A stretch of DNA of 64,000 nucleotides from a virus: positions 81,401-145,400 of the IMG/VR virus record IMGVR_UViG_3300044213_000170; one strand, 5' to 3'. Position numbers and translations under genes: made by a program. The stretch's first letter is position 1. Every line of letters begins with the position of its first letter. The notes beneath the pieces were generated by a model. The model searched no databases, had not been told where the DNA came from, and worked only from the letters and a program-made list of their open reading frames with translations. Of the stretch, positions 1 to 3,903 are shown piece after piece.

Positions 1-75
1 TGGCAGGGGGTTAGGGAATCGAACCCTATCACCTACGGTCAAAGCGTAGTATCTGCTCCAATCGATTTACCCCCA
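1..75 (-). tRNA. tRNA-Gln(UUG)
   Basis: Cloverleaf; anticodon loop CUUUGAC; GTTCGATTC T-loop; encoded CCA at window edge. Confidence 0.85.
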
Positions 76-159
76 ACTGATCTGAAGTGTTGCTTATTCT
101 ATACAATGTACAATATAAGCAACAGTTTGTTGGTCTCGCATAATGCGAATTATAAAACT

Positions 160-236
160 TGGCGACCCCGGATGGATTTGAACCACCGACATTTGGTTTT
201 GGAGACCAACGTTCTGCCAGACTGAACTACGGAGCC
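160..236 (-). tRNA. tRNA-Trp(CCA)
   Basis: Cloverleaf; loop CUCCAAA; CCA end. Confidence 0.93.
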
Positions 237-243
237 ATTAAAT

Positions 244-334
244 TGGCGGAGGGCTAGAGAGTCGAACTCTAAAGGCGCTATTAACGCTCGGCGGTTTTCA
301 AGACCGTTACCGTCACCAATCGGCTTGGCCCTCC
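244..334 (-). tRNA. tRNA-Ser(UGA)
   Basis: Loop CUUGAAA; long variable arm; CCA end. Confidence 0.93.
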
Positions 335-343
335 ATTTTGTGA

Positions 344-456
344 TTGTCGTTACGGGGTTTACCGTACCTGAAACTAGTCCCACCGCTTGCCAATCTTACT
401 GAATGGACCTATAGACTTATGTGGCGCTTCCGTGCATTCTCATTACACTATGACAA
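344..456 (-). ncRNA. tRNA-like structured RNA with enlarged central region
   Basis: Terminal pairing UUGUC/GACAA; D-like arm GUGU-AAUGAGAAU-GCAC; T-like hairpin UACGG/CCGUA; no canonical anticodon arm. Confidence 0.4.
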
Positions 457-460
457 AACT

Positions 461-538
461 TGGCGCAGACCAAAGGACTCGAACCTTTGCGGGAATCTAG
501 AATGCGGAGGACATGCCCCCTACCCCTCCATTATCTGC
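461..538 (-). ncRNA. tRNA-like RNA with canonical acceptor/T arm/CCA but aberrant D and anticodon region
   Basis: GCAGAU/GUCUGC-G-CCA; CAAAGG-UUCGAGU-CCUUUG; internal GGAGG/CCUCC hairpin. Confidence 0.6.
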
Positions 539-545
539 ATTAACT

Positions 546-621
546 TGGTGCCGTCGCCATGAATCGAACACGGGACCTTCTCATTACAAGTGAGTTGCTC
601 TACCAACTGAGCTACAACGGC
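546..621 (-). tRNA. tRNA-Thr(UGU)
   Basis: Loop CUUGUAA; CCA end. Confidence 0.93.
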
Positions 622-630
622 TTTAATAAA

Positions 631-709
631 TGGCGCACCGTACGAGATTCGAACTCGTGATCTCCGCCGTGACAGGGCGGCGCCTTAGGCCAGACTGAGC
701 TAACGGTGC
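631..709 (-). tRNA. tRNA-Asp(GUC)
   Basis: Loop CUGUCAC; CCA end. Confidence 0.93.
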
Positions 710-714
710 AAATT

Positions 715-790
715 TGGCGCTCGGTAGGGGAATCGAACCCCTCTTCCCGCCGTGAAAGGGCGGTGTCCTAGACCGATAGACGAACCGAGC
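715..790 (-). tRNA. tRNA-Glu(UUC)
   Basis: Loop CUUUCAC; CCA end. Confidence 0.93.
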
Positions 791-796
791 ATAATA

Positions 797-870
797 TCTT
801 GAGACGGTGGAATCAAACCACTCTAGTCAGCATCTTCTCTGTGAAGATGCCCGTAATCATACTCCTCAAA
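797..870 (-). ncRNA. Degenerate tRNA or tRNA-like RNA
   Basis: UUGAG/CUCAA ends; GUGG-UUUGAUU-CCAC T-like arm; 8-bp GCAUCUUC/GAAGAUGC hairpin; no CCA. Confidence 0.45.
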
Positions 871-872
871 AT

Positions 873-939
873 ACTATATGTAAGTACACTACTCATCGGC
901 TGTGCCATTTGACTGTTCGGCAATGTACTTGCATATAGT
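873..939 (-). ncRNA. Long-stem structured RNA candidate with GCCGAA after the stem
   Basis: About 16-20 bp terminal inverted repeat (actatatgtaagtaca...tgtacttgcatatagt). Confidence 0.45.
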
Positions 940-1022
940 TTAGGGCTGTGGTCACTTTCGACTTAACATTTAACTAAGGCTTTCTTTATGCATTTATATC
1001 CTTAGCACCCTTCTTAAACATT

Positions 1023-1051
1023 ATTATAAAAGAAAATACTTTTATTGTCAA
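1023..1051 (-). promoter_or_regulatory. sigma70-type promoter
   Basis: TTGACA-17-TATAAT. Confidence 0.85.
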
Positions 1052-1056
1052 CTATG

Positions 1057-1141
1057 TAGTGGATGCGGTTGGAGTCGAACTTACTCATCCGAAGAAACTG
1101 GGTTACAGCCAGCCACACCTCTCCAACTGTGTCGCACTTCC
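1057..1141 (-). pseudogene. Degenerate tRNA-Tyr(GUA), tandem paralog of 1149..1234
   Basis: Loop CUGUAAC; variable arm similar to its neighbour; mismatched T stem; 3' end ACUA instead of ACCA. Confidence 0.7.
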
Positions 1142-1148
1142 ATTAATT

Positions 1149-1234
1149 TGGTGGGTAAGGATGGATTCGAACCAACTCATCCGAAGGAAAGAGATTTACA
1201 GTCTCCCGCGCCTCTCCAACTGCGCCGCTTACCC
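1149..1234 (-). tRNA. tRNA-Tyr(GUA)
   Basis: Loop CUGUAAA; long variable arm; CCA end. Confidence 0.92.
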
Positions 1235-1243
1235 ATAGTACAT

Positions 1244-1272
1244 ATTATATCGAAAAAAATAATTTTCGTCAA
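1244..1272 (-). promoter_or_regulatory. sigma70-type promoter
   Basis: TTGACG-17-TATAAT. Confidence 0.8.
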
Positions 1273-1314
1273 CTAAAAAAAAAATAGCCGTAAACTTGTT
1301 AAGGCTATTTTGTT

Positions 1315-1389
1315 TGGTGGAGGATAGCGGGGTCGAACCGCTGACTGAAGCTTGCAAAGCTACCGTGTTCCCAACTATACCAATCCCCC
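1315..1389 (-). tRNA. tRNA-Ala(UGC)
   Basis: Loop UUUGCAA; G3:U70 pair; CCA end. Confidence 0.92.
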
Positions 1390-1400
1390 CGATAACTTAT

Positions 1401-1574
1401 TTATTCTTCTTTGCCACGCTTGGTGGACTTTGCCAACCGATTATTAGTTTCAATCATCTTAGTATACATTTTGAAATACTCGCGACGATCGGTATTGTTT
1501 AAAATCCTTGCAGCACGGCGCTTAACCGCTTTAGGCATTTTTATTGCTTTAATGTCATATCCTCTACAGGTCAT
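1401..1574 (-). CDS. Small basic hypothetical protein (57 aa, MTCRGYDIKAIKMPKAVKRRAA...)
   Basis: Manually translated ORF below the track cut-off; GAAAG upstream; fills the gap between RNAs. Confidence 0.6.
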   Translation of the reverse strand: MTCRGYDIKAIKMPKAVKRRAARILNNTDRREYFKMYTKMIETNNRLAKSTKRGKEE

Positions 1575-1599
1575 TTTATTTCTTTCAAAAATAATTAAT

Positions 1600-1820
1600 T
1601 GTAGTTCAGTGTCCTCAGGTTTATCACTGATGTTTAGACGTTCAGAGCCGGACTTCCTAACGTCGAGTTCTTCCAGGACTTGTTACTCGGGCTACTAAGC
1701 CAGGTGCTCCTTTTCAGCTACCGCCCAAAATGGACAGTGGGGAGTTGAACCCCCTCCTGCTTTACACTAGTTCAACGTTCGAACATCTTACTAATGTGCT
1801 TTTCACTTGCTAACACTACA
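1600..1820 (-). ncRNA. YrlA/Y-RNA-like RNA with a circularly permuted tRNA-like domain
   Basis: 5'->3' order: T arm (GGGG-UUCAACU-CCCC), loop-closed acceptor stem (ACUGUCCA-UUU-UGGGCGGU), D-like arm, all closed by CAGG/CCUG; UGUAG/CUACA termini. Confidence 0.6.
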
Positions 1821-1824
1821 AACT

Positions 1825-1900
1825 TGGTCTCCGTAGAAGGATTTGAACCTTCACCGCATGGTCCCAAACCATGAACGCTACCGGGTTACGCTATACGGAG
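1825..1900 (-). tRNA. tRNA-Pro(UGG)
   Basis: Loop UUUGGGA; CCA end. Confidence 0.92.
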
Positions 1901-2331
1901 TTTATACTTTTCAACATAATCGTCTATAATGGGCTGAACCTCATTAACATAACGACTATGAACATAACTATGATGTGTAGGACATAAAGGAACTAAATTC
2001 GCAGGTTCATTGTTATCATGGTTGTGATCGTGATGATGCACTGCTACAATTTTATCTTCCTCACACACTACACACTTTTTATCGTGGTGTAAGAAGCAAA
2101 TGGATTGATACTTTTCGCCCTTCCAATTACCGTTACTTTCACCACTTCTAAAATGCTTGTTTGAACAACTTCTACTGCAAGTACCTTTAGAGTTCTTGAA
2201 GTCCTTAATAGGGGTCGAACATACTATACATTCTTTTATATTAACAGGATTTAGATAACAATTATCCTCGTGCCGTTTAATATTTTGTGGTTCGTTTCTT
2301 TACCGCAGTATTGACAATTAATATGTTTCAT
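1886..2331 (-). pseudogene. HNH homing endonuclease with a 1-nt frameshift near 2290
   Basis: MKHINCQYCGKET continues in another frame as QNIKRHEDNC...CSRSC...CVVC...VHHHDHNHDNN...NLVPLCPTHH; span of 446 nt is not a multiple of 3. Confidence 0.75.
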
Positions 2332-2400
2332 ACATTTATTTATCATTTAGCGCACAGAATGAGATATTCTCAAACAGACTGCTCTACACTCCGAAATCTC

Positions 2401-2476
2401 TGGTAGGACGTGACGGTCTCGAACCGCCGACATTCACGGTGTAAACGTGACGCTCTACCAACTGAGCTAACGTCCT
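2401..2476 (-). tRNA. tRNA-Val(UAC)
   Basis: Loop UUUACAC; CCA end. Confidence 0.93.
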
Positions 2477-2495
2477 ATATCTTTTACTTATGTTT

Positions 2496-2524
2496 ATTAT
2501 ACAGACACAAATAATAAATGTCAA
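2496..2524 (-). promoter_or_regulatory. sigma70-type promoter
   Basis: TTGACA-17-TATAAT. Confidence 0.85.
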
Positions 2525-2629
2525 ATAATTTTTGCAATTTCCGGTGCAAAAACTGCACTTGCAAATGCTATATAAAATAATAATATCAACATACTCTAAT
2601 CCTCTAGACTATAGTATATTTAATATGTA

Positions 2630-2703
2630 TGGAGCGGAATATCAGAATCGAACTGATGACGTCTGCTTGGAAGGCAGTGGTTTTACCATTAAACTAATCC
2701 CGC
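2630..2703 (-). tRNA. tRNA-Gly(UCC)
   Basis: Loop CUUCCAA; U73; CCA end. Confidence 0.92.
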
Positions 2704-2713
2704 ATTTTATTCT

Positions 2714-2790
2714 TGGTGCCTTGACCTGGATTCGAACCAGGGACCTACGCCTTATCAAGACGGTGCTACTACCAGCTGAGCTATCAAGGC
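2714..2790 (-). tRNA. tRNA-Ile(GAU)
   Basis: Loop UUGAUAA; CCA end. Confidence 0.88.
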
Positions 2791-2795
2791 CAATT

Positions 2796-2880
2796 TGGTG
2801 CCCCCCAAGAGACTCGAACTCTCACGCCTTGCGGCGCTGGAACCTAAATCCAGTGCGTCTACCAATTTCGCCAAAGGGGC
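2796..2880 (-). tRNA. tRNA-Leu(UAG)
   Basis: Loop UUUAGGU; long variable arm; CCA end. Confidence 0.93.
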
Positions 2881-2889
2881 AATGATGTT

Positions 2890-2966
2890 TGGCTCCTCGA
2901 CGTGGGCTCGAACCACGGACATCTTGATTAACAGTCAAGCGCAACTACCAACTGTGCTATCGAGGA
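2890..2966 (-). tRNA. tRNA-Asn(GUU)
   Basis: Loop CUGUUAA; CCA end. Confidence 0.93.
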
Positions 2967-2985
2967 ATAAAATTCAACAGTATAT

Positions 2986-3015
2986 ATTATATATGCGATA
3001 TAAATTTGCTGTCAA
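2986..3015 (-). promoter_or_regulatory. sigma70-type promoter
   Basis: TTGACA-18-TATAAT. Confidence 0.75.
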
Positions 3016-3116
3016 GTATTTTAGAACACACTAGTGATTCGACCTAGTAAATGGGCCCGCCACAATAGTTTATCGTTCTATCGGCCGAGTTATTCGTCTA
3101 ATGTGCTCTAAAATAC
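3016..3116 (-). ncRNA. Long-stem structured RNA candidate with GACGAA after the stem
   Basis: Terminal inverted repeat gtattttagaacacactag...ctaatgtgctctaaaatac. Confidence 0.5.
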
Positions 3117-3129
3117 CTTCTTATTAAGA

Positions 3130-3262
3130 AGATATGTTAGGGTTGTACCCTAACCAGTTATCTGTACTTTGCTGTTATCGCCAGCATTTCATCCAACTGT
3201 CCGCCCATTTGTCACATTTTATATGGCGTTGTGTGCTGGCTCGCGTTGCCTTATCACGCCGA
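3130..3262 (-). ncRNA. Structured non-coding RNA candidate
   Basis: Stems GUUAGGGU/ACCCUAAC, CAGUU/AACUG, GCCAGCA/UGCUGGC, GGCGU/ACGCC in a non-coding stretch. Confidence 0.45.
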
Positions 3263-3292
3263 AAATTAACAATAGTCAATTTTCTTTTTACA

Positions 3293-3326
3293 TAAACAAA
3301 AACCCCAGGGTGTTTAATCCTGGGGT
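3293..3326 (-). terminator. Intrinsic terminator (attenuator)
   Basis: ACCCCAGG-loop-CCUGGGGU followed by UUUUGUUU. Confidence 0.85.
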
Positions 3327-3351
3327 CCTTAGAGTGGTTGTAGTGTTGTTT

Positions 3352-3495
3352 TTACGCTACAATGTCCCCCTGGACCCCGATCTTAATCTCCGGTGTACGA
3401 TCATTATGATTTCCAGTAACCATACACCAAGAGGCAGACATCGCCTGTCTCTGTTTGGCATAAAAGTTTACTGATGATGATAAAATCGTGTTCAT
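3352..3495 (-). CDS. Putative attenuator leader peptide (47 aa, all 20 amino acids)
   Basis: MNTILSSSVNFYAKQRQAMSASWCMVTGNHNDRTPEIKIGVQGDIVA*; lies between a consensus promoter and the terminator; overlaps the antiterminator arm. Confidence 0.65.
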   Translation of the reverse strand: MNTILSSSVNFYAKQRQAMSASWCMVTGNHNDRTPEIKIGVQGDIVA

Positions 3496-3505
3496 GATGT
3501 TTTGT

Positions 3506-3534
3506 ATTATATGTTATTTATACTTTGTTGTCAA
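3506..3534 (-). promoter_or_regulatory. sigma70 promoter with embedded T4-type late promoter
   Basis: TTGACA-17-TATAAT; TATAAATA at 3515-3522. Confidence 0.85.
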
Positions 3535-3575
3535 GAAGTTTTGATTATGTTGTAAAAATACAACAAATTAAAATT

Positions 3576-3660
3576 TGGTGCGCCTAGCCGGAATCGAACC
3601 AGCATGACCGAAGTCGGGAGATTTTAAGTCTCCTGTGTCTACCTATTTCACCATAGGCGC
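3576..3660 (-). tRNA. tRNA-Leu(UAA)
   Basis: Loop CUUAAAA; long variable arm; CCA end. Confidence 0.93.
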
Positions 3661-3680
3661 ATTTGTTTTGCAATAACTCT

Positions 3681-3709
3681 ATTGTAGCAATATTTCTATT
3701 TATTGTCAA
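3681..3709 (-). promoter_or_regulatory. sigma70-type promoter
   Basis: TTGACA-17-TACAAT. Confidence 0.75.
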
Positions 3710-3729
3710 CAATATTTTGTTGTTATTTT

Positions 3730-3821
3730 TGGTACCAGCGGAGGGGATCGAACCCTCTCAAGAACGCTAATCTGGCGCTAAAAGTCTTATAAGGACTCTC
3801 TGACTTCCAAGTCTCGCTGGT
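3730..3821 (-). tRNA. Non-canonical tRNA with UAU anticodon (reads AUA), long V-arm and minimal D-loop
   Basis: Loop CUUAUAA; 7-bp acceptor stem; T arm; CCA; D hairpin GACU-UGGA-AGUC; V-arm AGCGC/GCGUU. Confidence 0.8.
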
Positions 3822-3826
3822 AAAAC

Positions 3827-3903
<77 letters not shown>

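Follow-up and report, generated by a model that had tools for sequence, protein, structure and literature searches.

The tRNA operon of an uncultured freshwater giant phage is probably headed by a ribosome-dependent transcription attenuator whose leader open reading frame (ORF) samples every amino acid. The unit lies on the minus strand of the window, i.e. the whole stretch of 64,000 nucleotides that was analysed, and is present as a single copy in the 145-kb IMG/VR contig from which the window is taken; the phage is called giant because this contig is estimated to be 42% complete. A general tRNA-shortage attenuator had been proposed at this position from the letters of the window (the sequence-only reading). 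The comparative data presented here support this proposal, and we infer from it a response to starvation and to anticodon nucleases.

The unit opens with a sigma-70-type promoter (3506-3534, minus strand) in which TTGACA (3534-3529) and TATAAT (3511-3506) are separated by a 17-nt spacer and which matches at 12 of 12 positions, confirming the perfect promoter of the sequence-only reading in both place and strand. The ATG at 3495 lies 10 nt past the -10 hexamer, and the mRNA is therefore predicted to be nearly leaderless, with a 5' UTR of about 3-4 nt as judged from the promoter position, in keeping with the earlier description of the ORF as almost leaderless. The leader ORF itself (3352-3495, minus strand) has the claimed 47 codons, starts at 3495 and ends with a TAA codon at 3354-3352. 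Its translation contains all 20 amino acids plus an internal Met, and the full set is indeed reached within the first 36 codons. Among the relatives with enough upstream DNA a promoter matching at least 10 of 12 positions is found within 120 nt in 91 of 91; the start is leaderless-like in 31 of them and preceded by a 30-60-nt leader in 60, of which 45 carry an SD-like run.

Relatives of the unit were collected in IMG/VR by a scan for the terminator motif, which gave 81 loci, and by a scan for a conserved in-ORF motif combined with a profile search, which added 37 units with variant terminators. The resulting 118 units, many of them from contigs of 200-360 kb, represent 94 different RNAs and 90 different peptides. 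Another 115 distinct homologues came from a collection of 5.8 billion proteins searched with a profile. The neighbouring methyltransferase led to 67 loci, only one of which (L005) has the unit and most of which are without a neighbouring tRNA array. Distant blastn searches of GenBank phages gave no match to the window unit or to a consensus-like relative, and no cultured phage is therefore available. When genomes of bacteria and archaea were scanned with a loose pattern, none among the at least 120 matches listed fitted the family profile. Freshwater metatranscriptome contigs from four runs are confined, in relatives, to the conserved stretches of terminator and tRNAs; one of them extends from a terminator into the downstream small ORF, in a library that may include DNA and with contigs that give no transcript ends. 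A full-text literature search found no publication on a leader ORF ahead of phage tRNA arrays or on this element.

The core of the putative switch is a pairing between the antiterminator 5' strand inside the ORF (seg2) and the antiterminator 3' strand (seg3). Both elements of this switch that had been claimed from the window are present: GGGGTCC at 3378-3372 faces GGACCCC at 3328-3322, and the latter overlaps a terminator consisting of ACCCCAGG (3326-3319), a 9-nt loop, CCTGGGGT (3309-3302) and a T-run to 3298. In the transcript this intrinsic terminator (3294-3330, minus strand) has an 8-bp GC-rich stem of ACCCCAGG with CCUGGGGU (3309-3302) followed by the U-run; a simple terminator scan missed it only through an 8-nt limit on the loop. 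The sequence ACCCC is common to the window terminator and the antiterminator 3' strand, and the family has ACCC(C/U) at this place. The antiterminator domain (3316-3382, minus strand) is closed by an outer helix of GAUC+GGGGUCC (3382-3372) with GGACCCC..GAUU (3328-3316), the outer stem of which also sequesters the AGG of the terminator arm, and contains an inner helix and a hairpin B (3362-3338, minus strand) that holds the stop codon. In the family the domain spans about 66 nt with a median of 21 bp and has the stop codon at its centre, with seg2 starting 21-25 nt ahead of it and seg3 following at a distance of 23-26 nt. Hairpin B is found with 48 different pairs of arm sequences, and in 89 of the 94 units the stop codon lies in its 5' arm or loop or abuts it.

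Covariation in both helices had been suggested by the sequence-only reading as a check on the alternative folds. RNAalifold on MAFFT alignments returned the terminator only or nothing, because the middle parts were misaligned, and named structures and per-sequence folds were used instead. All 7 positions of the core antiterminator helix are complementary in 83 of 94 units. Of its cells in the alignment 97.3% are paired, with compensatory changes at 3 of the 7 pairs. The terminator has 99.3% of cells paired and one variable pair (CG in 69 units, UG in 16 and UA in 9). The 69 units with C at the shared nucleotide have G opposite it in the antiterminator in 65 cases; the 25 units with U have A there in 23, and A or G opposite it in the terminator. 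Covariation is thus seen in both helices, and at the shared base it is three-way.

Folding calculations point to read-through as the default state. The predicted median free energy is -26.6 kcal/mol for the antiterminator domain compared to -17.8 kcal/mol for the terminator, the antiterminator being the stabler of the two in 93 of 94 units, and the domain is part of the minimum free energy structure of transcripts without the terminator 3' arm in 89 of 94. As the antiterminator forms first and is predicted to be the stabler fold, transcription would by default continue, and termination should depend on a ribosome that keeps pace with the RNA polymerase to the end of the ORF. The opening of the 5' half of the domain, which termination is predicted to require, would be done exactly by such a ribosome. 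Upstream of the domain, a further hairpin P1 (3388-3433, minus strand; -19.0 kcal/mol, z -4.0) lies within the ORF, where it starts in the region of the Trp codon and extends as far as the Thr-Pro-Glu codons. Its closing stem is predicted in 84 of 94 relatives (median z -2.5), with no consistent upstream partner for seg2. P1 occupies the place of the trp-leader pause hairpin and may have a pausing role.

Based on this anatomy we infer that the ORF is translated and that the outcome is set by timing. The strong promoter would drive a leader of about 200 nt, in which each amino acid, elongator Met included, is represented in the 47-codon ORF. The final third of this ORF, together with the stop codon, would be enclosed in the ~66-nt antiterminator domain, whose 3' strand is the 5' arm of the terminator. 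Only a ribosome that has decoded every codon quickly enough to cover the region from seg2 to the stop codon while RNA polymerase makes the terminator 3' arm would free ACCCCAGG, and the terminator would form. A lagging ribosome would leave the antiterminator intact and transcription would continue downstream, in the window into the ncRNA and in most relatives into an ORF of 50-60 aa, and on into the tRNAs, the levels of which would presumably be affected. Shortage of any charged tRNA, cleavage of tRNAs by host nucleases or a general failure of translation could each cause such a lag.

The evidence that the ORF samples every amino acid comes from the family. A set of 20 in one peptide of this length may arise by chance, as the sequence-only reading had cautioned, and the window peptide by itself is suggestive only; the family data are decisive. 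The complete set is present in 175 of 205 distinct peptides of 35-53 aa, compared with about 3% by chance, at a median pairwise identity of 43%, so that the retention of the amino acids despite divergence, which the sequence-only reading had named as a check, is observed. The same is true of ORF length (35-53 codons) and of ORF position, with the stop codon keeping its distance to the antiterminator 3' strand in most units. The IMG/VR peptides (n = 90, 35-51 aa) have all 20 residues in 81 cases, 19 in 8 and 18 in 1. The independent database sample (n = 115) has 94 peptides with all 20 and 20 with 19, the missing residue being mostly Cys or Val; the fraction of homologues without one residue, again mostly Cys or Val, is 10-18%. 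For a 46-mer, the chance of containing all 20 is about 0.35% with the phage proteome composition and about 3% with the flattened composition of the family itself. Random draws with these two compositions are expected to give 0.4 and 3.0 complete peptides per 90, respectively, compared to the 81 observed. After thinning to less than 50% identity, all 20 are still present in 16 of 21 representatives.

Cys is present as a single copy in 79 of 90 peptides, spread over 20 alignment columns, and His as a single copy in 78 of 90, spread over 18; Tyr occupies 22 columns, typically beside Trp or in an S-Y-D-R position, and an internal Met is found in 87 of 90 peptides. The single Cys, His and Tyr residues relocate among many columns and are almost never lost. 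Because of this relocation without loss, descent alone does not explain the complete set, and selection must act on the presence of each residue type rather than on its position. Accordingly, shuffling within columns, which keeps the column compositions, leaves 15.6 +/- 3.3 complete peptides (2000 shuffles, maximum 28) compared to the 81 observed. On sequence grounds, selection of this kind would be explained only by decoding of the ORF. As far as we could find, no other reading frame has been described in which the presence of residue types is kept while their position is free.

The diversity of residues is also concentrated ahead of seg2. The set is completed at a median of codon 37, before seg2 in 77 of 84 units and earlier than in the shuffles. 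The geometric sensing zone holds 18.95 distinct residues compared to 18.0 +/- 0.11 in shuffles and has 19-20 residue types in 73 of 94 units, with a Glu codon usually at its edge as the usual borderline residue. No single residue is enriched in the leader ORFs, the rare residues occur mostly once, and tandem runs are absent. With a single codon for each amino acid, sensitivity should be lower than in classical attenuators with their tandem codon runs.

These observations bear on an alternative that we regard as unlikely, although it survives better than the others, namely that the unit senses transcription-translation coupling in general. It would then report on overall ribosome performance as affected by host shut-off, toxins or antibiotics that target ribosomes, or the energy state, and not on individual charged tRNAs, and the balanced composition would only make the decoding time representative of average translation. 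A default-on architecture would answer any ribosome lag, the single codons in place of tandem runs fit such a role, and uORF sensors already known, whiB7 among them, react to many kinds of translation stress (PMC10274678). However, a merely representative ORF has no need to keep exactly one copy of the rarest residues through some 20 relocations each, nor to concentrate the set upstream of seg2, and single codons in whiB7 do give amino-acid-specific sensing (PMC10274678). The two explanations overlap and are compatible with each other.

Besides the relocating residues the peptides share the strongly conserved motifs AKQxGFMPxYWS and NDRTPE and an invariant Trp. Together with the conserved length, these would be expected if the ORF encoded a functional small protein, with the hairpin just its terminator, the pairing a means of stabilising the mRNA and the complete residue set a matter of descent. 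Gene callers do annotate a hypothetical protein here, and all 115 database homologues are entered as unnamed or hypothetical proteins. We nevertheless consider a small protein quite improbable. The rare residues relocate with their presence kept and column shuffling destroys the complete set; synonymous sites within both motifs are also conserved, which points to constraint at the RNA level; the covarying pairing is mutually exclusive with the terminator; and the leader peptide has no match in Pfam, PHROGs or the protein atlas. Selection on composition leaves the conservation of motifs and synonymous sites unexplained, which suggests extra constraints at the level of the RNA or the nascent chain.

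Codon choice in the leaders is equally biased. GAG makes up 89% of Glu codons compared to 18% in phage genes, and the codons for Asp, His, Tyr and Phe are mostly NNU and not NNC (a fraction of about 0.9 compared to 0.6-0.75 in phage genes). Both preferences could reflect tuned decoding speed or plain RNA structure and are confounded by RNA-structure constraints. Comparison of codon usage with the phage tRNA set is uninformative, as the phage tRNAs can read every codon of the ORF. A TnaC-like arrest module (Trp ... Asp-Arg-x-Pro) was set aside, the Trp-to-Pro spacing varying from 11 to 16 residues.

That the terminated ~200-nt transcript is itself a trans-acting small RNA with the reading frame secondary, for which rnTrpL, reportedly an attenuator-derived trans-acting small RNA, is a precedent and with which the well-folded window transcript (z -3.9 relative to shuffled controls), the high conservation at the nucleotide level and the self-contained unit of strong promoter and terminator agree, is very improbable as an alternative and could rather be an added function, since it leaves unexplained the selection for all 20 residues, a frame kept across indels and a covarying helix that cannot coexist with the terminator.

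The genomic position of the unit would link the proposed attenuator to tRNA supply. The tRNA array (1-3903, minus strand) is on the same strand as the unit and has 17 tRNAs in the window and 18 beyond the window start, which jointly cover all 20 amino acids. The window unit sits inside the array, with three tRNAs upstream on the same strand; in its subfamily the tRNAs ahead of the unit are Met, (Ile) and Leu. In this region, adjoining a CAU tRNA, ARAGORN predicts a 92-nt tRNA-Ile with anticodon UAU (3730-3821, minus strand), which is below the Rfam tRNA threshold. In relatives with enough flanking DNA every unit stands at the 5' end of a same-strand tRNA array or close to it, and about 70% of these units have no tRNA within 4 kb upstream and their first tRNA 180-970 nt downstream.

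The same contig has a further perfect promoter about 3.6 kb beyond the window start (L260:7700-7835, minus strand), in front of an SD and a 7-codon ORF with hairpins behind it. This ORF has two Lys and two Arg codons and lies directly upstream of tRNA-Lys(CUU) and tRNA-Lys(UUU); judged by its sequence, the region is possibly a candidate mini-attenuator specific for Lys and Arg. A palindrome TGTTG-N8-CAACA just upstream of the -35 box of its promoter has a matching copy at 3565-3548 in the window and is not conserved ahead of the units of relatives.

Directly behind the window terminator follow a structured ncRNA (~3262-3130), a promoter at 3015 and tRNA-Asn. The ncRNA (3130-3262, minus strand), of unknown family and without a match in Rfam, would be the first read-through product. 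It has a motif hairpin GGC-AACGCGA-GCC at about 3251-3237 and conserved blocks AUAGGGAACGCGACCCU ... GGGCGGCCUACC ... GGUAGCGUAUUAAAG with visibly covarying stems in the window and in relatives (e.g. L101, L131 and L079). The motif and the conserved downstream blocks follow 76 of the 94 units, either behind the attenuator or behind a small ORF. The latter encodes 50-60 aa, has a good SD and starts 17-19 nt past the terminator in 65 of 94 units (e.g. L131:8940-9098, plus strand, and L101:5252-5422, plus strand). Its product carries the motif HTLTxEQxxKLIxDKFERA and has no match in Pfam, PHROGs or the protein atlas. The small ORF is absent from the window and appears to have been lost by the window phage.

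How much of the array read-through could control differs between phages. The sequence-only reading had cautioned that downstream tRNAs have their own promoters, and this holds true, with perfect promoters at 3015, 2524 and 1051 in the window. These internal promoters reduce what the switch can control in the window phage, where the adjacent ncRNA is all that read-through could gate, tRNA transcription being supplemented by it. In relatives the interval between the terminator and the first tRNA has a promoter-like site in 36 of 83 and none in 47 of 83, and the first tRNAs of these 47 would therefore depend on read-through.

Since the products are tRNAs, the proposed attenuator would act as a negative-feedback controller of their supply. 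On balance we lean towards the broader reading that giant lake phages keep their translation supply under closed-loop control, in which the ORF would probe decoding one codon class at a time, any shortage of charged tRNA, including that caused by anticodon-nuclease cuts, would turn on the ncRNA/tRNA operon and decoding speed restored by the phage tRNAs would turn it off. If so, it would be without precedent among leader-peptide attenuators both in controlling tRNA genes and in having been shaped by selection for a complete set of amino acids, with an ORF that seems built by selection to read all amino acids minimally, in some cases with as few as 35 codons. It would explain how complete tRNA sets are regulated in phages and would tie these arrays to the sensing of depleted or cleaved tRNAs. 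It could also serve as a compact natural part for sensing a shortage of any amino acid or any tRNA. With its perfect sigma-70 promoter and self-contained 240-nt layout the window unit is directly testable.

Classical leader-peptide attenuators each read one amino acid. The phage unit resembles trpL, hisL, leuL, thrL and pheL in its short leader ORF with the stop codon ahead of the shared strand. As in the trpL/hisL type, antiterminator and terminator are mutually exclusive and an upstream hairpin is predicted at the place of the pause hairpin. All complete units have a 35-53-codon ORF; the terminator lies directly after it and the antiterminator partly inside it. Unlike these systems, the phage unit has no tandem or enriched regulatory codon, and downstream of it are the ncRNA, the small ORF (in relatives) and tRNA genes instead of biosynthetic enzymes. 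There is further no conserved 1:2 'protector' pairing in the phage units, so that an untranslated leader should read through and not super-attenuate. The unit has no match in Rfam at the gathering threshold, His_leader (RF00514) scoring 17.2 bits compared to a threshold of 49.

T-box riboswitches likewise couple the charging status of tRNA to read-through by a choice between antiterminator and terminator. The T-box makes direct contact with one specific uncharged tRNA and works without translation, whereas in the phage unit sensing would pass through the ribosome and concern all tRNAs at once. T-box or specifier features were not found in the window unit, which has no Rfam match at either threshold. 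GOLLD RNA shares with the unit the tRNA-array neighbourhoods of lake phages. It is, in contrast, a large non-coding RNA of about 400-800 nt without reading frame or terminator switch, and the window unit does not match it. In one relative a GOLLD RNA with an embedded tRNA (Rfam RF02032, 226 bits; L082:4147-4611, minus strand) lies about 0.9 kb downstream of the attenuator unit in the same orientation.

The closest known analogue would be the whiB7 (wblC) uORF attenuator of mycobacteria and other Actinobacteria, by functional resemblance only, in which efficient translation leads to termination and stalled translation to read-through (PMC10274678). In both cases a uORF of mixed composition is followed by a choice between antiterminator and Rho-independent terminator. 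Which starvations the whiB7 uORF responds to depends on its amino-acid content, and one codon can be enough (PMC10274678). Without its single Trp codon or its three His codons it no longer senses starvation for the residue concerned (PMC10274678). The whiB7 uORF is enriched in Ala, the residues absent from it vary by species, with several missing in M. tuberculosis, and it controls a transcription factor (PMC10274678). The phage array, in contrast, has no WhiB gene downstream and no evident sequence relationship to whiB7, and its leader ORF is selected for the complete set of amino acids, with the rare residues usually present once, ahead of tRNA genes.
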